Assembly: GCA_031426555.1 (NCBI GenBank)
Contig: JANPLN010000008.1
Span: forward strand, 1 to 64,000
Direction of reading: 5' to 3'
From: Bdellovibrionales bacterium
GTDB taxonomy: Bacteria; Bdellovibrionota; Bdellovibrionia; Bdellovibrionales; JAGQZY01
Length of the DNA: 64,000 nucleotides
How positions within the stretch are numbered: position 1 is the first letter of the stretch; each line of letters opens with the position of its first letter. The position numbers and the translations under genes are program-made. Positions 21,468 to 60,468 of this stretch are shown here, piece after piece. Under the pieces are notes generated by a model that saw only the letters and a program-made list of their open reading frames with translations, did no database searches and was not told where the DNA came from.

Positions 21468-21533
21468 TATTTCGTCCTTTATAATGTTCATTTCCTTGCT
21501 GCTTGAGTGACCGCTCTTGCAAAGCACTTGCGT

Positions 21534-23288: not shown

Positions 23289-26200
23289 TTGATAACTGAC
23301 GTGGTACGTTTCTGCACTTCTAGATTTTCCTCTGTTTCTCGATGGATTCTTCTATCGACGTTAAGTGCATTTCTTTTATCCTGCGTTGCCAACGTGACCG
23401 AGCCAGGTGAAGCCACCGAATCCAATCTTATTTTTTCTACCAGCGCTGATGGGACCACTCCTATCACGTCGCTCGATTTTGGAATAGCCGCTGTTGGAGG
23501 CTACTACGACATCTCACTTTTCGTTTTTAATGCGGGGCGCGTGCCTGCACAGAACATCAACGACACGAGCGACGTCGCCCAAAAGTTTGCCTACGCTGGG
23601 GGAGCCTTTCCTGGCACCGGTGGGACTTGCACAACCGAAATCCTCGCGGGGCAATCGTGTATTATCAAATTGCGCTTTTCGCCAACCGACACCAGTGTTT
23701 CTTCAGGAACAATTTCGTTTGGCTATGAAGATCGCGTCAACGGCGCTAAATCTTCGGCTCTCGCAGTGACGGGTCAGGGTGGAACTCCTGGCTTACTCAC
23801 GATTTCGGATGCGCCCCTCTACGATTTTGGTGTGGTCGCCATCGGGAGTTCAGCCGAATATTCGTTTACAGTTTCCAACTCGGGCGAGTCTCGCGCTGTG
23901 AGCATTGCCGAAATCGGACTTTCAACCAATTACGGTTTTAAGGGTGGCATTTATCCCGGGACTGGCGGAACTTGTCTGCCAGAAATCCTTGGTGGTACGA
24001 GTTGCACCATTGTCGTCGCCTTTACGCCTACATTGCTGGGAGTTTTACCTGACACAATTAATCTTTCTTACTTTGACGGTGTTGGCAGTCAAAATTCGAC
24101 GCGCGATATTCAAGGAACCGGCGTGTTTCCGGCTGTTTTGGAAATATCGGATGCTCCGATCTACAGTTTCGGAACAGTGCTTATCGGCCAGCAGCCAACT
24201 TATACGTTCACCATTAGCAATACCGGCGGCATAGCAGCCTCAGGACTATTCCTCGGGGGTTTGGCAGCACCTTATTCATTTGCTGGCGGTTCCTACCCAG
24301 GCGTCGGTGGAACCTGCGGCGTGGGACTCGGCGTGGCAAGCAGTTGTACGTTGGTGATTCAGTTCGCGCCAACAATTGCTGGCACATATATGGATACGAT
24401 GAATTTAGTGTATAACAACGGTATCACCCTCGCTTCGAGCGACCGCGACGTGATAGGTGTTGGCGTAACTCCTGCGTTAATCACGATTTCGGATGCGGCT
24501 TTGTATAATTACGGTACTGTAGCGGTGGGTTCTACCAACGATCACGCGTTCACACTTACTAACACCGGCGGCGTGAGTGCGACTCTGGTTTCAGGTTCGG
24601 GCTTGGTGGCTCCATTTGATTTTAAAGGTTTTGCGTATCCCGGTGCCGGCGGCACATGTACGGGAAATCTGCTTCCAGGCGCCAGTTGCGATGTGGTGAT
24701 CAGTTATCAACCGGTTGGAATCGGACTTTCCAGCGACACTTTAAACATCGACTATAATAATGGAATTGGACTGGTTCAATCCACCCGCGATATGCAGGGT
24801 ACTGCCGCGGCACCGGCTCTGCTCGCAATTACCAACGGCCCACTTTATGATTTTGGCACGTTGGCCGTCGGTGCGAGCAATACGCATGTTTTTACTATAT
24901 CTAATGGTGGTGGTGTGGCTGCCACGCTTGTGGGCATTGCCAGCTTATCGGCGCCGTTCACGTTTGTTGGTGGAGCTTATCCGGGCGCAGGTGGAACCTG
25001 CACAACCACCGTTGTTGCCGGCACTAGCTGTACAATCAATGTGGTCTTTACTCCGATCGCTATGGGCTTGTTTACCGATAGCATCGACGTTGACTATAAT
25101 GATGGAGCCTTTGCACAAGTCTTAAGTTTACCCATTCAAGGATCGGGTGTGGCTCCTGCCAATCTCGTGATCGCTGATGGCCCAACGTACGACTTTGGCC
25201 AAGTGGTGGTTGGCGGTGTGGGTGAACATATCTTTACAGTCACAAACTCCGGCGGAATTGATGCTTTAACAATTTCTGGACTGGGACTTGCTCCGCCATT
25301 CTCTTTTAAGGGTGGTGCCTACCCGGGTACCGGTGGAACTTGTGCTAACAGCTTAGCGGGCGGTGCAAACTGTTCGATCATCGTGACCTATGCGCCAGTC
25401 GTCGGTGGTATTGATAACGACACGATTGTTCTCGATTATTTTGATGGAGCCAACACGCAGCAGGCGCTGCGCGATGTCACTGGTCAAGGTTTTCCGCCAG
25501 CGCTCTTAACCATTTCCGATGGGCTTATCTATAATTACGGAACTATAGCTACAGGCGCCGCGGTGAACTATTTGTTTACCATCACCAACAGCGGTGGAAC
25601 AACCGCCACAGCTCTTGCGGGCGCAGGTCTAGCAGCTCCGTTTAATTATTTTGGCGGAAGCTATCCTGGAACTGGTGGAACCTGCGGATTGGCCATAGCG
25701 GCAGCTGCGACTTGCTCCATCGTTGTGGAATTTGCGCCGACAATCAATGTCGCCTATCTTGATACTATCCAGATCGATTATTTTGATGGCGTTGTGGCTC
25801 GATCGGCTCTCCGCGATGTTCAAGGTTCTGGTGCAGACCCTGCTCTCTTATTAATTAGCAATGCACCATCTTTTGATTTTGGTCAGCGCCCTACGGGCTC
25901 GTTGATTTCGCAAACTTTTTCGATCATCAACAATGGTGGTGTGAATGCCACGGGAGTGACCGGTCTGGGCTTAGCCGTGCCTTACACTTTCACCGGTGGA
26001 ACATATCCCGGAACCGCTGGAACTTGCGGCGCTGTTTTAGTGCCAACGGCCACGTGTTTAATTGAAGTGACCTTCGCGCCTGTTGCGATTGGTGCTACTG
26101 TCGACACCATTCAAATTGATTACAACAACGGTGTTGGTGTTGTGTCTTCCACGCGCGATGTGCTTGGCGAAGGCGTTGCTCCGGCGCTGTTAACACTTTC

Positions 26201-29200
26201 TGAAGCCGATCCTTATGACTATGGAACATTTGCTGCGGGTTCAACAAACAGTCACACCTTTACTTTTACCAATACCGGTGGATTTACTGCAACGGCCATC
26301 ACCGAAGTTGGATTAGCGGCTCCATTCCAATTTGCAGGCGGAACATTCCCAGGTACGGCGGGCACTTGCACAAGCACCATTCCAAGCGGAGCAAGTTGCA
26401 GCATCGTCGTCGATTTTATGCCAACGCTCACTGGGTTGTTTACCGACACCATCGACTTTACTTACAATAACGGAACTACAACACAAAGTGTACAACGCCA
26501 AATTCAAGGAACGGGCGTGAGTGCAGCGTCCATCGCGATCAGTGATGGTTTGATTTACGATTTTGCAACTCAACCCACGGGCAGTGTCACCATTAAAACA
26601 TTCACGCTGACAAACTCTGGCGGCTTTCCAGCCACGGCAATGTCGGGCGGCGGTTTAGCAGCACCTTTTGATTTTACTGGTGGCGCTTACCCAGGTGCAG
26701 GCGGAACTTGCGGACTCGTTCTCGGAGCCAGCCTCACCTGTACCATTGAAGTGAGTTACTCACCCCTCGCGGTGGGTACAAATAGCGATACAGTAATTAT
26801 TAGTTACAACGACGGTTCGGTTGTGCAAACCTCCACGCGCGCCGTGCAAGGAACAGCCGTGGCTCCGGCGTTACTCACGATTGCGGGACCAAGTCCGTAT
26901 CTTTACGGCACGATGGCGACAGGCTCAATCACCAATCAAACCTTCACCGTAACCAATACAGGTGGTTTTGCTGCGTCGGCGATCGCCGAAGTGGGCCTTG
27001 CCGCTCCATTTGCTTTTGCCGGTGGCATCTTCCCTGGAACTGGTGGAACTTGCGCGATAACATTGGCCGCTGGTGCAAGCTGTGATTTGGTCATCGCATT
27101 TAGTCCAACCATCAATGGTGTCTATTCGGATTCCATCGATCTAAATTACAATGACGGTGTCGCTGCACAAACGGCACTCAACGCGGTTCAGGGAACTGGC
27201 GCCACACCGGCTATTTTGGGATTGAGCGATGGTCCAACCTACGACTTTGGTTTACAAGGAACCGGTTCTACAACCAATCATACATTCATATTATCAAACA
27301 CCGGGGGCGTGAGTGCCTCGGCCATTCTGCCAGTGGCCATGGTTGCGCCATTTTCTTTTGCGGGAGGAACTTTTCCAGGCACGGCGGGAACGTGTGTTGC
27401 CACGCTGGCTGCGGGTTCGTCGTGCACAATTGTAGTGAGCTTTGCGCCAACAACTACGGGATTACAAACGGGAACATTATCACTTGGCTACAACGATGGC
27501 GCGGGCTCACAAAGTGTGAGCGGAGCCCTCGAAGGAACCGGTGCCTCACCAGCGCTCCTAACAATCGATCAAGCGCCATCTTACGACTACGGCACCGCCG
27601 CTGTGGGCTCTGTGACCAATCATGTGTTTACAATTATAAACTCGGGCGGAGTGACGGCAACGGCCATGGCCGGCGGCGCCTTTGGAGCGAACTTTTCGTT
27701 CGCTGGCGGAACCTATCCAGGAACTGCTGGAACCTGCGCGGCCACACTCGGTGCGACTCTTTCATGTACTGTTGTTGTCAGCTTTAATCCCATCGCCTCG
27801 GGAGCTCTTTCCGATACATTGTCGGTGGGCTACAACAGCGGCGTGGCATTGCAAACAGCGTCGCGCGCCGTGCAAGGAACTGGAGCGTCGCCGGCATTCC
27901 TCACTTTGACAAACGGTCCAACTTACAATTTTGGTAACGTGGCAATCGGTGGAACGGCCAACGTTGTCATCACCGTGACCAACACCGGTGGCGTTGATTC
28001 CACAGCCATGAGCGGCTCGGGACTTGCGGCTCCTTTTGATTTTACCGGAGCTGCTTACCCGGGAACCGCCGGTACCTGCGCGGGAACTCTTGCGCCCCTT
28101 GCAAGTTGTACCATTGTTGTGCAATTTGCGCCGACCATTGCGGGATCCTACAACGACAGCGTCGTCGTCGATTATAACAATGGTGCCGCGGTGACAAGTG
28201 TGGCGCGCGCTCTCACGGGGAACGGCGCCCTCCCTGCACAAATTACGATTAGCAATAATCCAACGTACGATTTTGGCAATGTGGCTTTAACTGCCACCTC
28301 GGCGTACTCTCTCACGCTCACCAACACTGGCGGTGTTGGCGCGACACTCATGACAGGTGTGGGGCTTGCAGCCCCGTTTGAATTTGCAGGTGGATCTTAC
28401 CCAGGAACTACCGGGACTTGCGGAGCCACTTTGGCAGCTACGGCCTCGTGCACAGTGCAAATCACTTACACGCCGACCATTTTGGGTTTGGCCACAGATA
28501 CTCTAGACATAAATTTTAACGATGGTGTCGCAGGGCAAACTTCAAGTCGTCCGTTGCAAGGAACGGGTGTGAATCCGGCAGTGCTAGCCATTGACAGTGG
28601 TCCAACCTACGACTACGGAACTCAAGCGACGGGATCAACCACCAACCGCACGTTTGTGGTTAACAATTCGGGTGGCGCACCTGCCACAGGTATCACTGGT
28701 ACGGGCTTAGCAGGAGCCTATAGTTTTGCTGGTGGAACTTATCCAGGCACGGGTGGAACTTGTGCGGCGACGATCGCGAACGGAGCCTCTTGTAACATCG
28801 TGGTGTCGTTTGCACCAACGGTGACGGGTCTGCTAACAGATTCCATCGAAATCAATTACAACGACGGAGCCCTCGTTCAGCAGGCCACGCGCGCGGTTCA
28901 GGGAACAGCAGTGAATCCAGCGCTCCTCACAATTTCTGATGGCCCCACTTACAACTATGGGTCTCTCCCGCAGGGTTCGACCACAAATTATTCGTTCACA
29001 ATTAATAACTCGGGTGGCTTTACCGCTACGGGAATGACCGGTTCGGGTCTGGCAGTTCCATTTAGTTTCGAAGGTGGAAGTTACCCAGGCACCACCGGAA
29101 CATGTACCGCAACACTCGCTGCCGGAGCCAATTGTACCATCGTGGTGACGTATGCGCCGGTGGCTTTAGGATCTGTCACCGATACCATTCTTGTCGCCTA

Positions 29201-50200: not shown

Positions 50201-53200
50201 GGCAAGTTTATCCATCAGCGACTCCAATCCGTACTCGTTTGGCACAATCCCAACCGGCGGAACAACGCAGTACACGTTCACGGTGACAAACACAGGCTCG
50301 GTCACGGCCACCACCATGAGCGAAGTGGGCTTGACCACGCCATTTGGTTTTGTGGGCGGCACATACCCTGGAACGGGTGGAACTTGCAGCACCACGTTGA
50401 GCTCGGGCGGAAGTTGTACATTGGTTGTGCGTTACTCGCCAATCGCCACGGGCGTACAAAACGGCACTCTCACTATGAGTTACTTTAACGGAGTCAGCAC
50501 ACAAAACTCCAGCCGCACAGTCACTGGTACGGGCGCAGCTCCGGGAACAATTACGATCTCCGAAGTCAATCCTTACAGCTTTGGAATTGTGCCCACAAAC
50601 TCTACTCGCACGTACACCTTCACTCTTACGAACACGGGTGGATTCATCGCCACATCCATGGGCGGACTTGGTTTATCGGCTCCATATTCATTCTTAGGTG
50701 GTACATATCCTGGTGCCGGCGGGACGTGCGGTGTGACTCTCGCGGTGGGTGCAAACTGTACTGTGATCGTTCAATATGCGCCAACGGTGATTAGTGGTGC
50801 GGATAACGACACCATAGATATTTCGTTTAACGACGGTGTTGCGACGCAAACGTCCAGTCGCGATGTCACCGGTAGCGCCGTTGCGCCGGCGCTCCTTACC
50901 ATCAGTCAAACCGATCCATACAACTTCGGAAGCACACCTGCGGGGAACAACATTGATTTCACATTCACGGTTTCAAACACCGGAAGCGTCACTGCCACCT
51001 CAATTTCCGAAGTGGGCCTTGCCGCTCCATTTGGATTCCTCGGTGGAACATTCCCAGGGACTGGTGGAACATGTCTGGTCACTTTAAATCCTGCTTCAAG
51101 TTGTACCATTGTTCTTCGCTTTAACCCGGCCGTTGCGGGAGCGTATAGCGATACTATCAACTTAAATTATAACAATGGTGTGAGTGTTGTTTCCTCTACG
51201 CGCGATGTTCAAGGAACGGGCGTGTCCACAGCTAACATTCAAATTTCCGACGTGGATCCTTACAACTTCGGCACCATCGCCGTGGGCGCATCCACCAACT
51301 ACACGTTCACACTCACAAACACGGGTGGATTTACGGCAACCACCATGACAGAGGTTGGTGTGTCGGCTCCGTTCTCCTATGTGGGTGGCGCGTATCCTGG
51401 AACTGGTGGAACCTGCGGTGGAACTCTCACACCGGCTTCCGCTTGTACCATCGTGCTTCGTTTTACTCCAACCACAACGGGGCTGGCTCCTGATGTGATA
51501 GACGTGTCGTACTTTAACGGATCGGCCACTGTGACCTCATCGCGCTCCATTCAAGGAACGGGTGCATCACCTGCGCTTATCACCATCAGCGAAACCAATC
51601 CTTACGATTATGGCAACGTCACAAACGGTGGAAATTCAAATCATACCTTTACTGTGACTAACACAGGTGGTGTATCGGCCACCGCTATGGGCGGATCGGG
51701 CTTAGCGGCTCCATTTACATTCTTGGGTGGAAGCTACCCTGGAACCGGTGGAACCTGCGCGTTGAGTGTTGCGGCCGGCGGAAGTTGTTCCATCGTAGTC
51801 AATTTTGCTCCAACAGCTACTGGAATTCAAAGCAGCACCATCAACGTGGATTATTTTAACGGCGTTAGCTCGCAAACGTCCATGCGCAACGTGCAAGGAA
51901 ACGGAATTGCTCCAGCTCTCTTAACCATATCGGATTCAGATCCCTACGATTATGGTTTGCTTGCCAACAATGGAGTTCGTTCTCGTACATTTGTTATCAC
52001 CAACGCCGGTTCCAGTGCGGCTTCAGCCATCACCGAGATCGGTTTGGCAGCCCCCTTTGGATTCTTAGGTGGTGGTTACCCAGGAACTGGCGGAAATTGC
52101 GGGGCTTCACTGGCTCCGGCGGCTACATGTAATATCGTGATCGCTTACAGTCCTACAGTTTTGGGAGTGAATTCCGACACACTCAGCTTGCAGTATAATA
52201 ACGGTGCTGTGGTAACAACCGCCAATCGCACAGTCCAAGGAACAAGCGGAGCTCCAGCCACCTTGAGCTACTCGGGCATCAGTCCATTTAACTACGGTAT
52301 CAGAGCGACAGGATCCACAACCGATCAAACATTCACCATCACCAACACCGGTGCGGTGATGGCCACAGCCATTGTGGATAGCGGAAACATGGCGGCGCCA
52401 TTTGTTTTCAAAGGCGCGCCATATCCTGGAGTGGGCGGAACTTGCGGAGCGACTATTGCGGCCGCCGCGAGCTGCACAGTGGTGGTTTCGTTCCAGCCAA
52501 CCAGCAATGGTCTGCAGACGGACGACATTGAACTCAACTTCAACAACGGCGCTGGCACAGTGGCGGGACTGCATCCATTGCAAGGAACCGGCGCATCGCC
52601 TGCCAGCTTAACCATTTCCGAATCAAATCCTTACACCTATCCATCCGTCACCGCGGGCTCCACCTCGGCCTACGTATTTACGGTCACAAACACCGGCGGC
52701 GTGGTGGCCTCGGCCCTCAGCGAAGTGGGACTGAACGTGCCATTTAGATTCCGTGGTGGATCATATCCTGGAACCAGTGGAACCTGCGGTGCCACACTCA
52801 GTAGCGGCTCTTCGTGCAACCTCGACATCGAATTTGCGCCCATTGCCACAGGACTTGTAACCGACACCATCGACATTTCGTACTTCAACGGTCAGTCCAC
52901 AGCCAACGCACAACGAAACATTCAAGGTACCGGATTGTCCGTGGCCACTCTTGCCATCAGTAGCTCGGATCCCTACAACTTTGGTACCGTAGCGACAGGC
53001 GGAACAGCCACGTTTGTGTTCACGGTGACAAACTCAGGATCCTCCGCCGCCACTAGTATCGCCGAAGTGGGCTTAGCAGCCCCGTTTGTATTCCCAGGTG
53101 GATACCCAGGAACAACGGGAACATGTACCACCACGCTCCCTGCGAGCTCCACATGTACAATTCAGGTAGCCTTCAGCCCGGGTTTAACTGGGCTGCAATC

Positions 53201-55964
53201 AGATACCATCAACCTCAGCTACTTCAACGGTGTGTCTTCGCAAAATACCACCCGCGATGTGCAAGGAACGGGCGCCGCTCCAGCAACACTCACGCTCAGT
53301 TCCAATCCACTTTTTGATTTTGGAACTCTGGCCGTGGGCGCCACCGCGCAAACCACGCTCACCGTGCAAAACACCGGCAGCGTCACGGCCACGGCCATCG
53401 CTGATGGATTGGGCCTTGCGGCACCATACACATTCTTCGGCGGCACGTTCCCAGGAACGGGCGGAACTTGTTTGGCCACACTCGCACCTGCGGGAACCTG
53501 TACCATCGTCATTAACTACGCGCCAACGGGCACAGGAACCTTTAACGATGGCGTGATCGTCAGTTATAACAACGGAGTCAGTGCACAAACAGTGACACGA
53601 AATATCACAGGAGCTGCGGCAAGCCCAGCTCTCCTCAGTGTTTCCGTGGGAACTTACGATTGGCTCTTGTTATTTAATAGCAACGTGCAAACCACAAGCT
53701 TCACATTCCAAAACATCGGTGGCGTATCGGCCACTGGGATGAACGGAACAGGTCTCGCCAATCCATACAGTTTCGCTGGTGGCACATACCCAGGCTCCAG
53801 CGGAACTTGCGGTGTGACTCTAGCTCCGGCAGCCACGTGTACGGTGTTTGTGAGATTTAGCCCACTTGTGACGAACACCTATACTGACTCTGTACAAATG
53901 GATTATAATGATGGCGTGGGAACGACAAATACGACGAAAGCAATGACTGGTCGTTCGTACTCGGATGTGATGACATTGGCTCTTTCAAGTCCATCATCGA
54001 GCCCTGGCTCAGACACCACGCCGTCGATTCAGGCCAACCAAACCGTACCCTCCCTCAGAGTTTATTTATATAGCGATGCGTGTACGTCGCAGGTTGCAAC
54101 TGGTACCGCAGTGGCAAGTTCCATCGTGCTTACTTCCAGCGCTCTCGCCGAAGCCGCATACACTTTCCGCGTAAAAGGCGAGGACAGCTACGGCAACCAA
54201 TCGGCTTGTTCTGCAACTAGCGTGGCCTACACTATCGATGCGACGGCTCCAACTCCAAATACATGGTTGTGGGGTATGGCGAGTCCGAACGATGGAACTG
54301 AGAGCACCGACACCACTCCGCAGATTTCAGTGGCAGGGGTGATTGGTGAAGAAGGTACGATCGTTCAGATGTACCAAGACACTCTCTGTACTCAATCAGT
54401 GGGATTACCACAAACGATCTCCGGTGGCGGCGCGACGTTCAGTTTAACTTATGTCACTGGCGGCGCAGACGATGGCAATAAAACATTCTATGTGCGCGCC
54501 ACGGATCTTGGAACAAATCAAAACGTATGTGCGGCGGGCAATACCAATATGAATTATTTCTTGGATACGGTGAATCCAGCGAATCCAAGCTCGGTGGCTA
54601 TTGCAAGTGCATGGTCGCAAAGTAGTAGTAACTCACCGGCGTTAACATGGGCGACGGCTACAGATCCTGCACCGAGCTCGGGCGTGAATCGTGTTGAAAT
54701 TGGTCTATCAAATGTTGTTGGAGGTGGTAACCAAGTGGCCGGCTGGTTCTCACTCGCTCCCGCGACAGTAGGGTATACCTTCACAGGCCTTACTGGCTTA
54801 ACAGAATGTACAAACTACTGGCCAAGCCTGCGCGTTTTTGATGACGTTGGAAACGTAAGCTCAACGGTGGTGTCAACTCCATACAGAGTTGATACTGTAA
54901 ACCCACCAGACGTGACAATCACATCTCTTGCCAACGACAACGATACGGATAATTCTCCAACAGTTGTATGGTCATCTTCGGTCGATAACTGCGGCGCCGC
55001 CAACGTGACGTACTATGTAGCCATCAGTTACGATACTAATAATAATGGAGCCTTAGACGGGGGAGAACTCGGTAACACCGTTGGATTCACGAGCGTTGGG
55101 AATGTTACCACAGATATTAGAACGGGATTAACTCTTACTGGTATCAACGGCTACTTCACTTCGATTCGTGCTCAGGATCAGTCAGGTCGTCAATCGAATC
55201 GAACAGACACGGTAAGATGGTATTCTTTCAGAGGCGTACAGTACGATGGTACTGCCGAATATATTACTTTGCCGGATGCTCAGTGGAACACAGGCGACTT
55301 TACAATCTGTATGTGGATACGTCCAACTGTTGTAAACAGCTCTGGCACATCAGGCCATACATTATTGAGTATGTCGGCCGTGGACAAATATTTTTATCTC
55401 TCGTTTGATAATAATGAAATCGATTGGAAAATGGAATCAAACGGAGATGAGGACATGGTAATTGATGGTGTGGCCGCATTTGCAATCAATACGCTTTACC
55501 AAATTTGCGTGACTGCAGATTATGGTGGCGCCAACTCGCGCATTTATCGAAACGGTGCCATACTTGCTCAGACGTCGGGGACCAATCTGAGTGCAACACC
55601 ATCAGTGGCTCATACAACATTAACGATTGGTTACGAGCCAGCATCGAGCTTCCAGTCAACCGATGGAGACAAAACACTTCCGTTCCAAGGAACTATTGAT
55701 AACGTTATGATTTGGAGAAACAGAAATCTTAGCACAGCAGCTATCAACCAGCTCTATGCAGCTGGTGGCGGATTTGATCCTCGCTTCGCCTTCAGTAGTT
55801 ATGGGGCGGCTGATCTCGCTGCTTTGAGAATTTACTATCTAATGGGTGATGATCCAGCCGACGTCATTAACGGTGGCGGCGCAGTGATTAAAGACGTTAT
55901 GGGAGTTCAAGATGCAACGCCATTTAACTTCGAAGCGGGCGATTTCGGCCCGGGTTCTTGGTAA
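23289..55964 (+). CDS. Giant (10,891 aa) repetitive surface lipoprotein/adhesin: ~89 Ig-like (choice-of-anchor-D/ASH-like) repeats, then Big/FN3-like domains and a C-terminal LamG domain
   Basis: Uninterrupted 32.7-kb ORF with a TTG start after AGGAAAGG and a lipobox LLSC. Repeat consensus is 'YDYG....G....FTxTNTGG....GLAAPFxFxGGxYPGTGGTC...L..GASCTIVV.F.P......DTI.I.YNNG......R.VQGTG'. The C-terminus has LamG motifs 'FTICMW' and 'FQGTIDNVMIW'. Confidence 0.92.
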   Translation: MITDVVRFCTSRFSSVSRWILLSTLSAFLLSCVANVTEPGEATESNLIFSTSADGTTPITSLDFGIAAVGGYYDISLFVFNAGRVPAQNINDTSDVAQKFAYAGGAFPGTGGTCTTEILAGQSCIIKLRFSPTDTSVSSGTISFGYEDRVNGAKSSALAVTGQGGTPGLLTISDAPLYDFGVVAIGSSAEYSFTVSNSGESRAVSIAEIGLSTNYGFKGGIYPGTGGTCLPEILGGTSCTIVVAFTPTLLGVLPDTINLSYFDGVGSQNSTRDIQGTGVFPAVLEISDAPIYSFGTVLIGQQPTYTFTISNTGGIAASGLFLGGLAAPYSFAGGSYPGVGGTCGVGLGVASSCTLVIQFAPTIAGTYMDTMNLVYNNGITLASSDRDVIGVGVTPALITISDAALYNYGTVAVGSTNDHAFTLTNTGGVSATLVSGSGLVAPFDFKGFAYPGAGGTCTGNLLPGASCDVVISYQPVGIGLSSDTLNIDYNNGIGLVQSTRDMQGTAAAPALLAITNGPLYDFGTLAVGASNTHVFTISNGGGVAATLVGIASLSAPFTFVGGAYPGAGGTCTTTVVAGTSCTINVVFTPIAMGLFTDSIDVDYNDGAFAQVLSLPIQGSGVAPANLVIADGPTYDFGQVVVGGVGEHIFTVTNSGGIDALTISGLGLAPPFSFKGGAYPGTGGTCANSLAGGANCSIIVTYAPVVGGIDNDTIVLDYFDGANTQQALRDVTGQGFPPALLTISDGLIYNYGTIATGAAVNYLFTITNSGGTTATALAGAGLAAPFNYFGGSYPGTGGTCGLAIAAAATCSIVVEFAPTINVAYLDTIQIDYFDGVVARSALRDVQGSGADPALLLISNAPSFDFGQRPTGSLISQTFSIINNGGVNATGVTGLGLAVPYTFTGGTYPGTAGTCGAVLVPTATCLIEVTFAPVAIGATVDTIQIDYNNGVGVVSSTRDVLGEGVAPALLTLSEADPYDYGTFAAGSTNSHTFTFTNTGGFTATAITEVGLAAPFQFAGGTFPGTAGTCTSTIPSGASCSIVVDFMPTLTGLFTDTIDFTYNNGTTTQSVQRQIQGTGVSAASIAISDGLIYDFATQPTGSVTIKTFTLTNSGGFPATAMSGGGLAAPFDFTGGAYPGAGGTCGLVLGASLTCTIEVSYSPLAVGTNSDTVIISYNDGSVVQTSTRAVQGTAVAPALLTIAGPSPYLYGTMATGSITNQTFTVTNTGGFAASAIAEVGLAAPFAFAGGIFPGTGGTCAITLAAGASCDLVIAFSPTINGVYSDSIDLNYNDGVAAQTALNAVQGTGATPAILGLSDGPTYDFGLQGTGSTTNHTFILSNTGGVSASAILPVAMVAPFSFAGGTFPGTAGTCVATLAAGSSCTIVVSFAPTTTGLQTGTLSLGYNDGAGSQSVSGALEGTGASPALLTIDQAPSYDYGTAAVGSVTNHVFTIINSGGVTATAMAGGAFGANFSFAGGTYPGTAGTCAATLGATLSCTVVVSFNPIASGALSDTLSVGYNSGVALQTASRAVQGTGASPAFLTLTNGPTYNFGNVAIGGTANVVITVTNTGGVDSTAMSGSGLAAPFDFTGAAYPGTAGTCAGTLAPLASCTIVVQFAPTIAGSYNDSVVVDYNNGAAVTSVARALTGNGALPAQITISNNPTYDFGNVALTATSAYSLTLTNTGGVGATLMTGVGLAAPFEFAGGSYPGTTGTCGATLAATASCTVQITYTPTILGLATDTLDINFNDGVAGQTSSRPLQGTGVNPAVLAIDSGPTYDYGTQATGSTTNRTFVVNNSGGAPATGITGTGLAGAYSFAGGTYPGTGGTCAATIANGASCNIVVSFAPTVTGLLTDSIEINYNDGALVQQATRAVQGTAVNPALLTISDGPTYNYGSLPQGSTTNYSFTINNSGGFTATGMTGSGLAVPFSFEGGSYPGTTGTCTATLAAGANCTIVVTYAPVALGSVTDTILVAYNDGSAAQTATRDVTGTGVPPAVLSISDGPSFDFGIQATTSITDRTFTVTNTGGFVASSITGLGLAAPFEFAGGSYPGASGNCGANLLPAATCTIVVRFSPTLVGPFADTIQLDYDNGFSTQSATRNVVATGANPALLTISNGPTFDYGTLATGFSLNQAFTINNTGGVPATVISEVGLAAPFAFFGGSFPGTGGTCTTTLNQGASCTLVVAFSPTVTGLQSDTIDLSYNNGAGATNSLRAVQGTGAAPALITITEVDPYDYGTLANGASLDHVFTLTNTGGVPSSVMTGTGLAAPFTFAGGAYPGGAGTCTATLAPAATCTIIVRFSPTVSGAASDTIDITYNNGVIAQTSSRQVMGTGATPALLAISNGPTYDYGLIANGGTSSFVFTVTNSGAVPATAISEIGLAAPFAFLGGSFPGTGGTCGVSLGAGGSCLVAIEFAPAGLGPFNDTISLQYNNGAIVTTANRAVQGTAGAPANISISDGPTYNYGIKATGSSTDYTLTLTNGGAVSSTSMAGVGLAAPFTFKNGSYPGTGGTCAATLGAALTCTIVVTYEPTTVAAHADTIQINYNNGAIATNSTRDVAGTGANPALLTIDSGPTYDYGNITSGGVAIRTFTVANTGGVPATTLIDTGALAAPFSYVGATYPGTTGTCTGSLNAGASCTLRIQFAPSAGGAFSDTLILSYFDGASAQSTTRDIQGTGLSPAVLTLSNGPLYDYGTLTIGNNANFTFTVTNTGATTATGVSGSGLAAPFTFLGGSYPGIGGTCAATLVGSGTTCTIVVNYTPSTVGTQTDTLDIAYNDGVNAQTSSRNIQGTGITPASLTLSDGPSFDFALVATGSNNTKTFTITNGGGTTATGLGESGLAVPYTLLGGGFPGTGGTCGATLAAAGTCTIVVAYAPTLVGATSDTIVIDYNDGVIAQTATRGVTGTAANPALLAIDSGPTHNYGTLAIGSVNLRTFTVNNTGGVSATAVSEVGLAAPFAFAGGTFPGTGGTCIATIGAASSCTLVIAYSPTATGLQNDSIDLSYNNGAAVTNSTRAIQGTGASPALITVSGVDPVDYGTLANGASLDQTFTLTNTGGVDATVMTGTGLAAPFTFAGGSYPGGAGTCTATLTPAATCTIVVRFSPIVSGAASDTIDITYNNGVIAQTSSRQIIGTGATPALLAISNGPTYDYGLIANGGTSSFVFTVTNSGAVPATAISEIGLAAPFAFLGGIYPGTGGTCSITLGAGGSCLIAVQFAPVGLGPFNDTISLQYNNGAIVTTANRAVQGTAGAPASIAISDGPTYDYGIKATGSSTDYTFTLTNSGAVPTASMAGVGLAAPFQFKNGSYPGTGGTCGVTLGAALTCTIIVTYEPLTVAVHADTIQINYNNGAIATNSTRDVAGTGANPALLTISDGPTYDYGSITTGASATRTFTVNNSGGVAATTLADTGGLAAPFNYLGGTYPGTGGTCNTSISAGASCTIRVRYAPTASGVQTDTIDLSYFDGASTQNSTRDLQGTGLSPAVLTILGVDPFNFGTVPTGSNNTQTFTVTNTGGTSATGMSGTGLAFPYSFSGGSYPGGVATCGVALAPAASCTITVAYTPAAPSGSDADTVQVSYNDGSAAQVASRNLLGAAVNPGLLTISDTDPYNFGTLAIGSSITRTFTITNTGGFQTSAMIESGIAAPFTYFGGTYPGTAGTCSTTLAAAGTCTIVVQYAPSAAALQTDTISFAYNDGVNAQSVTRQVQGTGANPAVLTLSDADPYDYGTRAVGSALSRTFTLTNTGGFTASAIAEVGLALPFRFVGGTFPGTLGTCTATLTPTSSCTLVIEFVPTGTGLFADTIDINYNNGASLVNVTRQVQGTGAAPALITITDTDPYDFGNITVGATATRAFTLNNTGAVPATALGGAGLASPFSFLGGSFPGTGGNCGVTLGAGANCLVVVEFAPVAPVASSDTMDINYNNGVTGQTSSRQVTGTGVAPALLAIDSGPTYDYGLIANGGVLDRTFTVSNSGASAASAISETGLAAPFAFLGGGYPGTGGTCGVSIAAGASCTLVIRYSPLAVAVHSDTINLQYNNGAAVANATRAVQGQAGAPALVAISNGPTFNYGTQATGSSTSFTFTLNNSGAVSATSLADAGVLAAPFVYVGGTYPGTLGTCGATLLAGANCTIVLAFEPTGLGAATDTVQINYNDGATAQNTTRDLAGTGANPALLAIDSGPTYNYGSITVGATADRTFTVNNSGGVAATLISETGLAAPFAFLGGTYPGTGGTCAASVSAGASCTLVVRYAPTASGVVNDTLTLQYYNGAATTNSTRDITGAGLLAATITISELEPYSFGTVPSGSLNNYTFTLSNTGGSTATAIVGGGLAAPYSFFGGSYPGTGGTCTVTLTAGANCTIVVRYAPAAPSPSDVDAIQIDYNNGVIAQSVTRGVTGVSVAPAILIISDANPYNFGTLAVGASSTKTFTITNSGVFQASAMTEIGLAAPFTFVGGSYPGTAGTCTATLNGGASCTLVVRYAPGVPSPADNDTLTMQYNDGVNVQVSNRTVTGVAVTPANITITDSDPYDYGTVAQGAVATRTFTLTNSGGFTASALSEVGLAAPFGFAGGAFPGTAGTCAVTIAPAAACTVVIAFSPTGTGLFSDTMDFSYNNGATTVNSTRQLQGTGAAPALITITDTDPYDFGNITVGATATRTFTLTNTGAVPATAVGGAGLASPFSFLGGSFPGGGTCTATIAVSASCTVVVEFAPVASVASSDTMDINYNNGVNAQTSSRQVTGTGVSPALLAINSGPTYDYGLIANGGVRDRTFTVSNSGASAASAISETGLAAPFAFLGGGYPGTGGTCGVSIAAGGSCTLVIRYSPLAVAAHSDTINLQYNNGAAVANATRPVQGQAGAPALVAISNGPTYNYGTQATGSSTPFTFTLNNSGAVSATSLADGAGLAAPFVYVGGSYPGTLGTCGATLTAGANCTIVVAFEPTGLGASADTIIINYNDGAVAQSSTRDLAGTGANPALLAIDSGPTYDFGNVTVGASATRTFMVSNTGGVAATALADAAALAAPFNYLGAAYAGTGGTCNTTLSAGGTCTVVLEYAPVGTGLATDTLVLNYFNGATAQTTTRPLQGTGLAPAVLAISNGPVSYDFGTRPTGSTNDFTLTVTNTGGSIATAMAGAGLAAPYSFVGGSYPGGAGTCALTLGVGASCTIIVRYAPIVVSGSDVDTIQITYNDGFAAQMSTRGLTGVAVAPAVLTISDSNPYNFGTLAVGAGSTKTFTITNTGTFQASAVIENGLAAPFTYVGGSYPGTAGTCSNTLNGGAACTIVVRYAPGAPSVLDADSINFDYNDGVAAQSVARTVQGVAVTPANITITDSDPYDYGTIAQGAVATRTFTLTNTGGFTASALSEVGLAAPFAFAGGTFPGTAGTCAVTIAPSAACTVVIAFSPVATGLFSDTMDFSYNNGATTVNSARQLQGTGAAPALITITDTDPYDFGNITVGATATRTFTLTNTGAVPATAVGGAGLASPFSFLGGAYPGTGGTCSTPIAVSASCTVVVEFAPVASVASSDTMDINYNNGVSAQTSSRQVTGTGVSPALLTIDSGPTYDYGLIANGGVRDRTFTVSNTGASAASAISETGLAAPFAFLGGGFPGTGGTCGVSIAAGASCTLVIRYSPLAVAAHSDTINLQYNNGAAVTNATRAVQGQAGAPALVAISNGPTYSFGTQATGSSTPFTFTLNNSGAVSATSLADGAGLAAPFTYVGGTYPGTLGTCGATLTAGANCTIVVAFEPTGLGAANDTILINYNDGAAAQSTTRDLTGTGANPALLAIDSGPTYDFGNVTVGATATRTFIVSNTGGVAATAVADAAALAAPFRYLGASYPGTGGTCNTTLSAAATCTVVLEYAPTGTGLATDTLVINYFNGASAQTTTRAIQGTGLAPALLTISNGPGSYNFGTVPTGSTNNFTFTINNTGGSIATAMAGAGLAAPYSFVGGSYPGGAGTCALTLGVGASCTIIVRYAPTVVSGSDVDTVEITYNDGAAAQMSTRGLTGIAVAPAVLTISDANPYNFGTLAVGASATKTFTITNTGSFQASAVVENGLAAPFTYVGGSYPGTAGTCSNTLNGGAACTIVVQYAPGAPSVLDADSINFDYNDGVVAQSVARTVQGIAVTPANITITDSDPYDYGTIAQGAVATRTFTLTNTGGFTASALSEVGLAAPFAYAGGSFPGTAGTCAVTIAPSAACTVVIAFSPTGTGLFSDTMNFSYNNGATTVSSTRQLQGTGAAPALITITDTDPYDFGNITVGATATRTFTITNTGAVPATAVGGAGLASPFSFLGGSYPGTGGTCSTPIAVSASCTVVVEFAPVASLASSDTMDINYNNGVSAQTSSRQVTGTGVSPALLAIDSGPTYDFSLIANGGVRDRTFTVSNSGASAASAISEVGLAAPFAFLGGGYPGTGGTCGVTIAAGASCTLVIRYSPLAVAAHTDTLDLQYNNGAAVANATRPVQGQAGAPALVAISDGPTYNYGTRATGSSTSYTFTLTNSGAVSATSMADAAALAAPFVYVGGTYPGTLGTCGATLLAGANCTIVLAFEPTGTGLASDTVQINYNNGASVQNSTRDLIGTGANPALLAIDSGPTYNYGTVTVGAIATRTFLVSNTGGVAATVVSETGLAAPFTFVGGTYPGTGGTCAASISAGASCNLVVQFAPAGSGVANDTINLSYYNGAATTAATRDVTGAGAAPAVITISELNPYNYGTRPTGSINNYTFTLTNTGGSTATAIVGGGLAAPYSYLAGSYPGTGGTCTATLTAGANCIIVVSYAPSAPSVADNDSIQIDYNDGVNSQSSLRQLTGVAVAPALLTISDANPYNYGTLAVGASASHPFTITNTGSFQASAMTEIGLGAPYTFVGGSYPGTGGTCTATLNPTVSCTLVVQYAPGVPSVADNDTLTMQYNDGVNVQTVNRTVTGVAVTPANITLSDSDPYDYGTIAQTSSANRTFTLTNTGGFTASAISETGLAAPFAFLGGAFPGTGGTCVVTLAPAAACTVVIAFNPTGTGLFSDTINFSYNNGATTVSSTRQVQGTGAAAALITITDTDPYDYGNITVGSTATRTFTLTNTGAIAATGVGGSGLLAPYSFLGGSYPGGAATCGATINAGASCTIIVEFAPTSAVASSDTIDINYYNGASAQVSSRQVTGTGTAPAMLAIDSGPTYDYGLIANGGVRDRTFTVSNSGASAASAISEIGLAAPFAFLGGGYPGTGGTCGVTIAAGASCTLVIRYSPVAVAAHSDTIDLQYNNGAATANATRAVQGQAGAPALVAISNGPTYNYGTQATGSSTSFTFTLNNSGAVSATSIADAGALAAPFVYVGGSYPGTLGTCGATLTAGANCTIVIAFEPSGLGVASDTVQINYNNGASAQNTTRDFTGTGAAPALLAIDSGPTYDFGNVTVGASTTRTFIVSNTGGVAATTIADTAALAAPFNYLGAGYPGTGGTCNNTLSAGGTCTIVLEFAPTGTGLATDSVVLSYFNGASSQTSTRALQGTGLAPALLTISNGPGSYNFGTVPTGSTNDFTFTVSNTGGSIATALAGAGLAAPYSFVGGSYPGGGTCGLTIGVGASCSIIVRYAPIAISGADVDTIDITYNNGVSAQLSNRGLTAVAVAPAVLTISDSNPYNFGTLAVGASAQRTFTITNTGTFQATAVVENGLAVPFTYVGGSYPGTAGTCSNTLNGGATCTIVVQYAPGAPSVLDADAISFDYNDGVVVQTTTRTVQGVAVPPALITISDTDPYDYGTIAQGSTLTRTFTLTNAGGFTASALLETGLAAPFGYMGGTFPGTGGTCAVTIAPTAACTVVIAFSPVGTGLFADTINFSYNSGATTVSSTRQIQGTGAAPALITITDTDPYDYGNITVGAMATRTFTLTNTGAINATGVGGSGLLAPFSFLGGSYPGGAGTCGATINAGASCTVIVEFAPTSAVASSDTMDINYYNGASAQVSSRQLTGTGVSPALLTIDSGPTYDYGLIANGGVRDRTFSVTNSGASAASAISEVGLAAPFAFLGGGYPGTGGTCGVTIAAGATCTLVIRYSPLAVAAHSDTIDLQYNNGAVTANATRAVQGQAGAPALITISDGPTYNYGTRATGSSTSYTFTLNNSGAVNATSMADAAALAAPFVYVGGGYPGTLGTCGATLTAGASCTIVLAFEPTGTGVATDTVQINYINGATAQNTTRDLTGTGANPALLAIDSGPTYNYGSVTVGGIADRTFTVNNTGGVAATAVSEIGLAAPFAFFGGTFPGTGGTCAASISAGASCTLVVRYSPTASGVVNDTINLQYNNGAATTNSTRDVTAAGLSPASITLSELDPYNYGTRPTGSLNNYTFTLTNGGGSTATAIVGGGLAAPYSFFGGSYPGTGGTCIASLTAGASCTIVVRYAPTIPSVADTDSIQIDYNDGVNSQSSLRQVTAVAVAPGLLTISESDPYNFGTFAIGATAQHSFTITNTGGFQATGLVETGIAAPFIYLGGVYPGTGGNCSNTLNAGASCTIMVQYTPNAAALQTDTIDFAYNDGVNAQTVTRQVQGTGSAPATLTISDADPYDYGTIAIGGSLTHFFTISNTGGFTATAMAEVGIAAPFVYVGGAYPGTGGTCGTTLTPITSCSINVAFSPTATGLVADVITMNYNNGASIQSVSRQVQGTGTSSALITISESDPYNFGNITIGSNTNHMFTLINSGGVPATAMSGGGLVAPFTFLGGAYPGTGGTCTNNLGVGNACTIFVEFSPFSGGLAGDAIDISYNNGAAPATSLRTIQGTGITPALLTISESEPYDFGLVANNGVRNYAFTISNAGGSAATSISEVGIAAPFIYLGGGYPGTGGTCGTALAASTTCTIVLSFSPTVLGAYTDSIQVNYQSGVGAASATRGIQGTAGAPALLTISDGPTFDYGTKATGSSTDKTYTITNSGAVAATSIVDAATMNAPFVFKGGGYPGVGGTCGASLGTGASCFIVVSFEPTLNGLQTDSIEFNYNNGANTTNTLRAVQGTGAAPASLSISDSNPYSFGTIPTGGTTQYTFTVTNTGSVTATTMSEVGLTTPFGFVGGTYPGTGGTCSTTLSSGGSCTLVVRYSPIATGVQNGTLTMSYFNGVSTQNSSRTVTGTGAAPGTITISEVNPYSFGIVPTNSTRTYTFTLTNTGGFIATSMGGLGLSAPYSFLGGTYPGAGGTCGVTLAVGANCTVIVQYAPTVISGADNDTIDISFNDGVATQTSSRDVTGSAVAPALLTISQTDPYNFGSTPAGNNIDFTFTVSNTGSVTATSISEVGLAAPFGFLGGTFPGTGGTCLVTLNPASSCTIVLRFNPAVAGAYSDTINLNYNNGVSVVSSTRDVQGTGVSTANIQISDVDPYNFGTIAVGASTNYTFTLTNTGGFTATTMTEVGVSAPFSYVGGAYPGTGGTCGGTLTPASACTIVLRFTPTTTGLAPDVIDVSYFNGSATVTSSRSIQGTGASPALITISETNPYDYGNVTNGGNSNHTFTVTNTGGVSATAMGGSGLAAPFTFLGGSYPGTGGTCALSVAAGGSCSIVVNFAPTATGIQSSTINVDYFNGVSSQTSMRNVQGNGIAPALLTISDSDPYDYGLLANNGVRSRTFVITNAGSSAASAITEIGLAAPFGFLGGGYPGTGGNCGASLAPAATCNIVIAYSPTVLGVNSDTLSLQYNNGAVVTTANRTVQGTSGAPATLSYSGISPFNYGIRATGSTTDQTFTITNTGAVMATAIVDSGNMAAPFVFKGAPYPGVGGTCGATIAAAASCTVVVSFQPTSNGLQTDDIELNFNNGAGTVAGLHPLQGTGASPASLTISESNPYTYPSVTAGSTSAYVFTVTNTGGVVASALSEVGLNVPFRFRGGSYPGTSGTCGATLSSGSSCNLDIEFAPIATGLVTDTIDISYFNGQSTANAQRNIQGTGLSVATLAISSSDPYNFGTVATGGTATFVFTVTNSGSSAATSIAEVGLAAPFVFPGGYPGTTGTCTTTLPASSTCTIQVAFSPGLTGLQSDTINLSYFNGVSSQNTTRDVQGTGAAPATLTLSSNPLFDFGTLAVGATAQTTLTVQNTGSVTATAIADGLGLAAPYTFFGGTFPGTGGTCLATLAPAGTCTIVINYAPTGTGTFNDGVIVSYNNGVSAQTVTRNITGAAASPALLSVSVGTYDWLLLFNSNVQTTSFTFQNIGGVSATGMNGTGLANPYSFAGGTYPGSSGTCGVTLAPAATCTVFVRFSPLVTNTYTDSVQMDYNDGVGTTNTTKAMTGRSYSDVMTLALSSPSSSPGSDTTPSIQANQTVPSLRVYLYSDACTSQVATGTAVASSIVLTSSALAEAAYTFRVKGEDSYGNQSACSATSVAYTIDATAPTPNTWLWGMASPNDGTESTDTTPQISVAGVIGEEGTIVQMYQDTLCTQSVGLPQTISGGGATFSLTYVTGGADDGNKTFYVRATDLGTNQNVCAAGNTNMNYFLDTVNPANPSSVAIASAWSQSSSNSPALTWATATDPAPSSGVNRVEIGLSNVVGGGNQVAGWFSLAPATVGYTFTGLTGLTECTNYWPSLRVFDDVGNVSSTVVSTPYRVDTVNPPDVTITSLANDNDTDNSPTVVWSSSVDNCGAANVTYYVAISYDTNNNGALDGGELGNTVGFTSVGNVTTDIRTGLTLTGINGYFTSIRAQDQSGRQSNRTDTVRWYSFRGVQYDGTAEYITLPDAQWNTGDFTICMWIRPTVVNSSGTSGHTLLSMSAVDKYFYLSFDNNEIDWKMESNGDEDMVIDGVAAFAINTLYQICVTADYGGANSRIYRNGAILAQTSGTNLSATPSVAHTTLTIGYEPASSFQSTDGDKTLPFQGTIDNVMIWRNRNLSTAAINQLYAAGGGFDPRFAFSSYGAADLAALRIYYLMGDDPADVINGGGAVIKDVMGVQDATPFNFEAGDFGPGSW
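30300..53960 (+). repeat. Seven-domain super-repeat (~2400-2409 bp period) within the giant gene
   Basis: The 'GLIANGG'-type domain recurs at ~30327, 32727, 35127, 37527, 39936, 42345, 44748, 47154, 49554 and 51954. Confidence 0.9.
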
Positions 55965-55986
55965 TTTAAATCAACGCGGAGGTTTT

Positions 55987-56874
55987 ATGAAGAATTTTTT
56001 CACTAATGCAGGCAACAAAAGTATATTTATTTTGGGAGTCTTGGTAATCAGTTTGGCCACGGGCTGCCTCTCGAAAGACGAAGAAGACACAGACACCACT
56101 GGAGGCGGCACAACAGGTGGCGGAGGTGGTGGTGGAGCAACAAGTGGTGAGAGTGTTCTCTTTGACGGCACCGCCGAGTACCTTACAACGTCGTCAGCGT
56201 GGTTGACCGGCGATTTTACGATCTGTTTATGGATGAAGCCAAGTAGCGTGGATAGCTCAGGAAGTTCTGGCCATACACTTTTAAGTATGTCATCTGCTGA
56301 CAAATACTTTTACCTGTCTTTTGATAACAACGAACTCGATTGGAAAATGGAATCCAGTGACGACACAGATATGAACATTGACGGCGTAACAACATTTACG
56401 TCAGGTAATACTTACCAAGTTTGCGTCACTGGCGATTACGGCGGAAATCTTTCACGAGCATACGTCAATGGTGCACAAGTTGGCGGGGTGCCGGCATCTC
56501 TTGGCGCCGGTGTCGCGGCCGCCCACACCACTTTAACAATCGGATACGATCCAGCTCCTAGCTTTCAGGCCGCCGACGGAAACAAAACCCTCCCATTCGC
56601 CGGGGTGATGGACAACGTGATGATTTGGACCTCAGTGCTTCCAGCAAATGCCATCAGTCAGTTGTACGCGGGTGGCGCAGGAATGGATCCACAATTTGCT
56701 TTTAGCAATTACACGGCTTTCCATGTATCAAACCTCGAAGTCTACTATCTCATGGGCGACTACGCAGCTGACGTCATCAGCGGCGGCAGCGCCGTGATCA
56801 ACGATCAACTGGGCAACCAAAACGCCACCCCGGTAAATTTTGAGTCCACTGATTGGGATTACAATCTTTGGTAA
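55987..56874 (+). CDS. LamG/concanavalin-A-like lipoprotein, paralog of the giant protein's C-terminal domain
   Basis: GGAGG RBS, lipobox ATGC and a Gly/Thr linker, then a domain colinear with the last ~245 aa of the giant ORF (shared SGHTLLSMS, DKYFYLSFDNNE.DWKMES, HTTLTIGY, DNVMIW, YYLMGD). Confidence 0.88.
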   Translation: MKNFFTNAGNKSIFILGVLVISLATGCLSKDEEDTDTTGGGTTGGGGGGGATSGESVLFDGTAEYLTTSSAWLTGDFTICLWMKPSSVDSSGSSGHTLLSMSSADKYFYLSFDNNELDWKMESSDDTDMNIDGVTTFTSGNTYQVCVTGDYGGNLSRAYVNGAQVGGVPASLGAGVAAAHTTLTIGYDPAPSFQAADGNKTLPFAGVMDNVMIWTSVLPANAISQLYAGGAGMDPQFAFSNYTAFHVSNLEVYYLMGDYAADVISGGSAVINDQLGNQNATPVNFESTDWDYNLW

Positions 56875-56956: not shown

Positions 56957-56996
56957 TAAGATCGGATCATAACCAATAAGATCGGATCATAACCAA
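56957..56996 (+). repeat. Perfect 20-bp tandem duplication
   Basis: TAAGATCGGATCATAACCAA repeated twice. Confidence 0.9.
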
Positions 56997-57106: not shown

Positions 57107-57385
57107 ATGGATACAAAGATGGGATATATGCCACACAAACCGAGACCCAAGGAAGAAACTTTAGGAATTCTTAACGACTACGAGCAAGGAATGTCGGCCA
57201 AAGAAATTTGTCAAAAGTACGATATTTCTGAAACCACATTTTTCCGTATGCTCAGGGTGAGTCGTGGTTTTCCAGCTGATGCAACAAGGCGTAAGATTGA
57301 AAATAAAGTTCAAAAACTCGAAAAGACTTTAAAGGAGCGTGAACGAGAGATCACGCTGTTAAAGGCCGCTTTAAAAAAAAGTTAA
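57107..57385 (+). CDS. IS3 OrfA (HTH plus coiled coil)
   Basis: 'GMSAKEICQKYDISETTFFR' HTH and a leucine-zipper-like tail. Ends just after an A8G slippery run at 57373-57381. Confidence 0.88.
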   Translation: MDTKMGYMPHKPRPKEETLGILNDYEQGMSAKEICQKYDISETTFFRMLRVSRGFPADATRRKIENKVQKLEKTLKEREREITLLKAALKKS

Positions 57386-57423
57386 AAATCAATGATCGAA
57401 AAGAACTCGTTACAGATTTTATA

Positions 57424-58248: not shown

Positions 58249-58256
58249 AGGTCACG

Positions 58257-58278
58257 CTCACTGCCGCTGCGGTAGTAC
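58257..58278. repeat. Left 22-bp palindromic repeat flanking the HNH gene
   Basis: CTCACTGCCGCTGCGGTAGTAC. Its reverse complement matches 59651-59672 at 20/22. Confidence 0.8.
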
Positions 58279-58548
58279 AGCCGCATCAATCCGGTAATTT
58301 ATTTTAAAAACTATTTGACCTGGGTTTTTGATCATACATTTTGTTTATAGCCTTTCATTTTACTCCATCTCGTACCGCTTCTTGCGTCTTTCAAAATCGC
58401 AGTTTAAAAGCCTGCTAGCATTCGTTAGAGCGCGCTTCAGAGCAAAATTCATTTTAGATGTCCGGAAAGCAAAAGTTCGAAATCTTAAAAAATAAAAATC
58501 ATGTTAAGTGTATTTGCATGAAAAGAATTAATTTTTTTAGGAGGTCCT

Positions 58549-60286: not shown

Positions 60287-60468
60287 AATATTTATTCCTC
60301 GTCTCGAATCACAAAATAAATTCGTTCTTTCAAGATTAACCGATTCATTTGAACTTAGACGACATTTTTGCAAACCAGACTCGACCACCATCGGGAAAAT
60401 AATTTAAAATCGGGAGTGCGTGAAAGCGCCACCTAGGATTAAAATGTAATAAAAGGGATCACCACACG

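Follow-up and report, generated by a model that had tools for sequence, protein, structure and literature searches.

Introduction

The closest described relatives of the locus studied here fall into two groups, and the papers cited for them are represented by part of their text. In Bdellovibrio bacteriovorus, MAT fibres swap tips on a shared fibre, some of the tips being phage-like and one binding prey glycans (PMC10769870). These fibres are trimeric and ~1,000 amino acids (aa) long, and one was modelled at ~55 nm (PMC10769870; PMC12428579). In the portion of a 2025 review considered here, MAT and MIDAS are the only adhesin families named (PMC12428579). The second group is exemplified by the RTX adhesin MpIBP, a giant adhesin with an anchor, a long immunoglobulin-like (Ig-like) extender and a ligand-binding tip (PMC5550230). 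Here we analysed a stretch of 64,000 nucleotides (nt) from a Bdellovibrionales bacterium (assembly GCA_031426555.1, contig JANPLN010000008.1, positions 1 to 64,000 of the forward strand; hereafter the window), in which a giant predicted lipoprotein on an Ig-like stalk is followed by a short lipoprotein with a related head. Sequence comparison shows the giant to be one allele at a polymorphic locus, where the distal stalk and neck vary in concert with the tip and the genes downstream, a feature that the preliminary description of this DNA had missed. As a plausible but tentative reading, the giant would be a long-reach surface adhesin and the short protein would present a related head near the membrane for the same class of ligand.

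We did not find a description of this giant family in the literature, nor anything joining Bdellovibrio with choice-of-anchor domains, in a search whose coverage left out subscription journals and supplements. A preprint on giant genes in Omnitrophota and other groups (10.1101/2023.11.21.568195) does not use 'lipoprotein', 'laminin' or 'Ig-like' in the main text that we could consult, and its supplements could list such proteins.

Results and discussion

Two lipoproteins with related heads

The giant open reading frame (ORF; 23289-55964, + strand) stays open for 10,891 aa (1,076 kDa). The short gene (55987..56874, + strand; 295 aa, 31 kDa) starts with an ATG at 55987, 22 bp past the giant's stop at 55964, and the spacer (55965..55986, + strand) holds a Shine-Dalgarno-like GGAGG. 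From a TTG start, the giant opens with a signal peptide and the lipobox LLS-C32 (23289..23384, + strand; Cys32 at nt 23382). The short protein has the lipobox ATGC (Cys27 at nt 56065), then a ~27-aa acidic Gly-rich linker and the head at 56146-56871. Both lipoboxes were read by eye, and their cysteines (Cys) are retained in the proteins of relatives.

In a BLASTP comparison, the last 246 aa of the giant and the last 242 aa of the short protein aligned end to end with 147/244 identical residues (60%, E 8e-97), and the identical blocks include DKYFYLSFDNNE, HTTLTIGY, DNVMIW and YYLMGD. The preliminary description had claimed this end-to-end likeness, these blocks, the 22-bp spacing and a separate lipobox on each protein, and all of them stood up. 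As a control, we used the LamG domains of 149 other proteins, obtained by searching 1.84 billion representatives with a profile (library matches P0009-P0157, with the close relative P0011 excluded). Each head gave 220 alignments of at least 120 aa, with a mean identity of 26% and maxima of 32% and 34%, so the two heads are clearly more similar than unrelated LamG domains. In the following, G000 is the window's genome, other G numbers are genomes of relatives, L numbers are fetched loci or contigs and P numbers are library protein matches. G000 holds exactly two copies of this head, and its third LamG protein had no significant BLAST match.

The tip of the giant (55224..55964, + strand; PF13385, E 5e-20) is a pentraxin/LamG-fold head, which we call class LamG-A. 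PF13385 (Laminin_G_3) scored 70-73 bits on the heads against a gathering cut-off of 27.6, which places them in this family, and a jelly-roll fold was modelled. The tip model, built from a 14-row alignment, reached a predicted local distance difference test (pLDDT) score of 88. Its structural matches were the LG domain of PAPP-A, BACOVA_03559 (a putative carbohydrate-binding protein of Bacteroides) and PTX3/pentraxins, with Z scores of 18.7-20.3, root-mean-square deviations of 2.7-3.1 Å and 187-204 residues aligned; identity to the pentraxin fold matches was 14-18%. The LamG/ConA-like head proposed earlier is borne out by this confident structure model (Z about 20). A fold of the short head predicted from its sequence alone was poor (pLDDT 38) and was not used. 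A circularly permuted LamG domain was dropped because the whole 246 residues align with pentraxins. Likewise, fold matches to clostridial neurotoxin binding domains were not read as a toxin, only the jelly-roll being shared (12-19% identity).

Pentraxins proper form ring oligomers with a Ca2+-dependent ligand site. In our alignment, E71 and D75 are invariant across the 14 rows and represent a candidate Ca2+/ligand site, and the conserved acidic residues of the tip are kept in the short head too. Look-alikes of the head are common in phages; a tblastn search of phage genomes gave no useful result.

Stalk and predicted reach

The stalk (23460..53954, + strand) consists of 89 choice-of-anchor D (ASH/HYDIN-type Ig-like) repeats (NF012200, PF22544) of 113-115 aa, each with a conserved Cys pair. 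The number is made up of 87 motif matches and two double-length gaps, and it agrees with the roughly 89 Ig-like domains counted before. NF012200 scored 288 and 331 bits on two pieces of the giant against a cut-off of 45, assigning them to the choice-of-anchor D family. The giant has 188 Cys, about two per repeat, and the pairs probably form disulfides. In mid-stalk there is a higher-order repeat of 7 (sometimes 6) units, with identity peaks at lags 7, 13-14 and 20. A TafC match to the giant was weak (25 bits against a cut-off of 410) and was disregarded. Behind the stalk follows a neck of ~420 aa (53955..55223, + strand), its first part Big_13-like (weak PF19077), which is common to giants with several different tips.

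The repeat alignments found, 12 in number, show only 72-80% identity at the DNA level, and the giant gene contains no exact repeat of 50 nt or more; a length produced by misassembly is therefore unlikely. A single 11.9-kb Logan contig covers 53000-58500 without differences, although it probably comes from the source sample and is thus not independent; the assembly of the giant gene looks sound. The window DNA was found in one sequencing run, a freshwater sediment metagenome, with no RNA run among the holders listed.

In MpIBP, ~120 domains correspond to 0.6 micrometre (PMC5550230). Scaled from this value, the stalk would reach roughly 0.35-0.45 micrometre. An extended protein of this length cannot fit the periplasm, so the giant would have to be exposed on the surface.

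Conservation of the pair

In our comparison set, with one genome per species, close heads occurred in 3/384 Bdellovibrionales genomes (G000, G009 and G010). Each has two copies, one long and one short, and none has only one. Three further genomes of the 384 gave weak generic LamG matches only. A profile search over 390 genomes of the class returned the same three genomes and one weak match, and in a sample of 401 genomes of the phylum G000 alone matched. The five same-genus genomes gave no match to the close head.

G009 has an 8,489-aa giant in the gene order xerD-like, yifB-like, giant, short, SnoaL-like, DsbA-like, as in the window, with a gene that looks flagellin-like by eye ahead of the giant. 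The giant of G010 measures 10,112 aa; downstream of it come a 227-aa gene and then SnoaL-like and DsbA-like genes, and the short gene sits on another contig. The metagenome contig L029 is a fourth LamG-A case, with the end of a giant, a C1q-domain gene, the short gene and the end of a SnoaL-like gene (the last by eye). The pair is therefore kept in relatives. As for the single operon that the preliminary description had assumed, the adjacency holds in the window, and the claim is weakened by the inserted gene ahead of the short gene in L029 and by the separate contigs of G010.

Age of the short gene

The preliminary description had offered the short copy as a possible donor cassette for tip exchange, which would mean that the short gene renews the giant's tip by ongoing gene conversion. 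Silent donor cassettes are unexpressed partial copies with near-identical DNA tracts. The short gene instead has its own start, ribosome site and lipobox, and the two heads are far apart at the DNA level: synonymous divergence (pS) is saturated at 0.79 with a nonsynonymous divergence (pN) of 0.27, the longest exact match is 19 nt, and identical residues share a codon in only 51/137 cases, no more than between genomes. In all eight comparisons made, pN lay at 0.19-0.39 against saturated pS, which shows that both heads are under constraint; both genes are intact.

The tree points the same way. The tips of G000 and G010 are sisters (support 96/92), and a clade of the window's two heads was rejected by the approximately unbiased (AU) test (p 0.027), with a clade of the three long tips borderline (p 0.050). 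The tip piece of L029 is 88% identical to the window's tip and 63% to L029's own short gene. Taken together, the saturated pS, the sister tips of G000 and G010 and the AU rejection argue that the short gene is an old, constrained paralogue and not an active donor.

Some signals do tie the heads of one genome together, and they are what could be said for a donor role. A 5-aa insertion occurs in both G000 heads (also in P0003) and a 6-aa insertion in both G009 heads; the G009 heads group at 93/95 (node not starred), both on long branches; and in the quartet with G009, by-genome sites outnumber by-paralogue sites (11:3 and 17:9). The shared insertions and the G009 grouping speak against full independence of the heads and point to conversion that was rare and ancient, to another duplication or to co-evolution, and the insertions would fit a shared ligand or old conversion. 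We therefore regard continuing renewal of the tip from the short gene as highly improbable, and gene conversion between the heads appears at most rare and ancient.

A polymorphic giant family with probably exchanged distal modules

With the last repeats and the neck as query, matches were obtained in 115/384 genomes, many via the repeat alone, and open frames of 6,651-11,209 aa were present in 12 other genomes. Among roughly two dozen stalk genes whose ends we retrieved, at least seven tip classes occur behind the related stalk, namely LamG-A, tip B, a second LamG type (LamG-B), FN3 + IgGFc-binding, LRR, RCC1-like and GLUG-like, the last two named by eye. There were no cross-matches among the tip classes compared, and none of these matched the window's tip; no toxin domain was detected in the tips scanned. 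Tip B, of ~205 aa and without a Pfam match, resembled phage minor tail proteins in one of two cases tested and is carried by three same-genus genomes. The neck had no match in G001 or G004. Some genomes, G009 and G019 among them, contain two giants with different tips. The giants with a LamG-A tip measure 8,489, 10,112 and 10,891 aa.

Two parts of the window's giant follow different relatives. Over residues 16-1306, identity to same-genus genomes (0.61-0.83) exceeds that to G009/G010 (0.41-0.65) in every one of the 11 blocks, and XerD shows the same order (84% and 80% vs 69%). In the neck this is reversed, with 0.33-0.56 for same-genus genomes vs 0.59-0.83 for G009/G010, and so it is in the last four repeats (0.48-0.56 vs 0.59-0.75), the same-genus C-terminal pieces compared being only 663-1,352 aa long. 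By these identities, the window's giant is a mosaic whose N-terminus follows the genus and whose distal part follows the tip type, and the distal module was probably exchanged by recombination.

Lipoproteins of 950-1,013 aa with a short stalk, the same neck and a tip were seen in G008 (C1 and C3), G017 (C10) and G019 (C2), forming a third, intermediate length class. In G000, a ~690-aa predicted lipoprotein on contig C70 (6584-8674, - strand) ends in two of the same Ig-like repeats, and its relatives seem common in the order (e.g., a 687-aa protein on G002 C44).

Genes linked to the tips

The SnoaL/NTF2-like predicted lipoprotein of the window (59714..60391, - strand; PF12680) has counterparts in exactly the LamG-A genomes, which are 3/26 of the family genomes. 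Behind tip B, an unnamed family of predicted secreted proteins of 137-165 aa lies directly downstream in 10/10 loci (L067-L075, L079). Most members have a Cys pair, two copies occur in G002, G003 and G005, and three members scanned had no Pfam match. A profile of this family found nothing in G000 or in the fetched LamG-A regions of G009 and G010, and the family is a candidate tip-specific chaperone or partner. Each of these two tip types is thus, as far as gene content tells, accompanied by its own downstream genes. The DsbA-fold protein of the window (60469..61773, + strand; weak PF01323) lacks CxxC. It belongs to a family found downstream of giants of several tip classes (19 relatives in the fetched downstream loci) and is possibly a folding helper.

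This linkage bears on a further explanation, in which the short lipoprotein is a cognate partner of the tip that would attach to it as chaperone, cap or hetero-oligomer partner in export or display, and not a binder of the outside ligand. That tip classes travel with their own downstream genes, as in the ten tip-B loci, would suit it, as would the genome-specific insertions shared by the heads, which fit co-evolution at an interface; in addition, pentraxin-fold proteins often oligomerise. However, G279 carries a stalk-less twin of its tip as well as the small cognate gene, so the two roles look separate, the SnoaL-like lipoprotein could itself be the helper at LamG-A loci, and the short head keeps the tip's conserved acidic residues. 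On balance we consider a partner role unlikely.

Some further neighbours were recorded. Giants with RCC1-like tips (L082:9182-14420 in G131; L084:6449-10498 in G321) are followed by a DsbA-like gene and by genes recognised by eye as motA-, motB- and FliG-like; in G000, the only MotA-like match is weak and on another contig. A C1q/BclA-domain gene encoding 218-227 aa lies downstream of giants of two tip classes (L029:417-1073; G010 C152 76139-76822; G005 L069:11864-12538) and had no tblastn match in G000.

Stalk-less twins in other tip classes

A short twin accompanies the LamG-A tip in 4/4 loci. The twin in G279, which has a tip B, is a 276-aa stalk-less lipoprotein 8 kb downstream, 40% identical to its own tip and grouped with it at 99/97. 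For LRR tips no clear twin was found, and G309 has a 686-aa LRR-tip relative. G308 has stand-alone LamG-B relatives of 317 aa and 405 aa. The 317-aa protein, 51% identical to the tip of its own giant, was rejected as a twin, with a tree pairing of only 36/0 and no lipobox. Since the LamG-A and G279 twins belong to unrelated tips and most giants have no twin, the twin would have arisen at least twice and be optional.

Such a patchy distribution invites the view that the short gene is a historical leftover: the giant would have captured its tip from a pre-existing stand-alone LamG lipoprotein gene, and that gene would still do an unrelated job of its own and stay with the giant through linkage. 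The absence of twins from most tip classes and the stand-alone LamG-B relatives in G308 agree with this, and the many phage proteins resembling the head suggest that tips may come from external sources. On the other side, the short gene stands alone in no genome among the 384-401 searched, G010 keeps it although it is unlinked there, and the shared insertions would require that the coupling persisted or that a second duplication took place. We find the leftover view quite unlikely.

The same polymorphism, with its allele-linked partner genes and pair-specific insertions, could also serve allele-specific recognition between cells, the tip binding the short twin on another cell with the same allele in kin recognition or aggregation. 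The short protein has an acidic stretch after its lipobox Cys, a feature seen in 9/125 rough lipobox ORFs of G000, which would also be in keeping with such a role. In Bacteroidetes, C-X-K-(D/E)2 after the lipidated Cys is a lipoprotein export signal, according to the part of the source used here (PMC5080379). The short protein reads C-L-S-K-D-E-E, with the K one place late, and the giant has no such motif; this consensus is a Bacteroidetes one, not known to work in Bdellovibrionota. Against recognition between kin cells, twins are absent from most alleles, and the heads match those of other genomes about as well as their own; we consider it improbable.

Proposed function

We return to the reading in which both proteins act as receptors. 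The two paralogous pentraxin/LamG heads would share a type of ligand, probably a surface glycan, and meet it at different distances: one from a stalk of the predicted 0.35-0.45 micrometre, the other close to the outer membrane. The short copy, born of an old duplication, may have been kept because it holds the same target once the cell is close, and the candidate targets are prey, a surface or kin.

Several points weigh against this reading. The host is uncultured, and a search of G000 gave no match to the S74 domain that many MAT fibres typically have. In G010 the two genes are unlinked, and the four LamG-A loci are related to one another and do not count as independent trials. Twins are rare with other tips: 1/8 genomes searched for tip B (G279), 0/3 for FN3/IgGFc-tip giants and 0/5 for GLUG-tip genomes. 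Moreover, the tree with G279 includes no other member of that genome's family, and the grouping of its heads could reflect kinship. LamG domains bind proteins as well, and 40% of the head residues differ, so the specificities of the two heads may differ. Finally, the N- and C-terminal pieces from same-genus genomes lie on different contigs, and their joining is deduced from flanking genes.

A broader proposal, possible but doubtful, is that the locus is an undescribed recognition system of Bdellovibrionales. In it, the distal half, tip and cognate genes would be swapped as one cassette across genera and would set what the cell grabs at ~0.4 micrometre, with the short twin as an allele-matched second receptor, either docking the same prey ligand or serving as counter-receptor for the tips of kin.

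For prey choice by Bdellovibrio-like predators, the locus adds a third candidate adhesin family beside MAT and MIDAS. It is about ten times longer, its partner genes are linked to the allele, and its exchangeable tips number at least seven. As a 31-kDa stand-in for the head of a 1.1-MDa protein, the short twin would make ligand specificity testable without the giant. Even with a function other than adhesion, the locus remains a clear example of cassettes being exchanged on a lipoprotein of megadalton size.

Other features of the window

On its left side, the locus is bordered in the genus and in G009 by the xerD-like and yifB-like genes (20574..22925, + strand). An IS3-type transposase pair and an HNH/DUF222 gene (57107..59643, + strand) are inserted between the short and SnoaL-like genes; G009 lacks them at this place. 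The HNH + DUF222 gene (58549-59643) had a weak match to an IscB model in its HNH part only (24 bits against a cut-off of 175), and a 19-bp unit in two exact tandem copies (56957-56995) lies just ahead of the IS3-type element. A terminator-like hairpin at 55936-55952 was rejected as being at chance level (3 found vs 3.1 expected). There were 10 promoter-like sites, each scoring just 9 of 12, vs 5.0 ± 2.0 expected; we left them uninterpreted. A type IV pilus cluster (pilB, pilT, pilC, pilS and pilR-like, named from Pfam domains) lies nearby, at 5503-12601.

Comparison with known systems

The MAT fibres, as far as the consulted accounts describe them, come from the same order of bacteria and likewise exchange C-terminal tips on a shared N-terminal part. 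They are trimeric beta-helical fibres, whereas the giant is a 10,891-aa lipoprotein made of Ig-like repeats, and allele-linked partner genes and a stalk-less twin are features of the giant family. G000 itself has several fibre-like ORFs of 1,400-2,600 aa on contigs C45, C57 and C34, four of them with a shared N-terminus, which are possibly MAT-like, although no S74 domain was found.

LapA and SiiE are further giant Ig-stalk adhesins. With this group (~1-1.5 MDa), in the parts of the literature used, the window's giant shares its size and its layout of anchor, extender and tip. RTX adhesins are defined by type I secretion, RTX repeats, a C-terminal signal and the lack of a signal peptide; the giant has instead an N-terminal lipobox and Cys-paired choice-of-anchor D repeats, and Pfam scans of the whole giant found no RTX family. 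Periscope proteins, in the text consulted, resemble the giants in carrying a head on a single-chain repeat stalk of varying length (PMC9704523). Their repeats are highly identical, in contrast to the giant's 72-80% at the DNA level, and the short form here is a separate gene.

NF012200, PF22544 and PF13385 supply the building blocks, and these families tell nothing of how the giant is laid out, of its varying tips or of the twin. In polymorphic toxin loci of the Rhs and CDI types, C-termini are exchangeable and cognate genes lie downstream. The genetic logic is the same here, with a conserved N-terminus, an exchanged distal part and an allele-specific gene directly downstream, and the giant tips seen are binding-type folds. 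Falling outside the definitions of MAT fibre, RTX adhesin and Periscope protein alike, the giant exchanges its tips as MAT fibres do and has the shape of the giant Ig-stalk adhesins.

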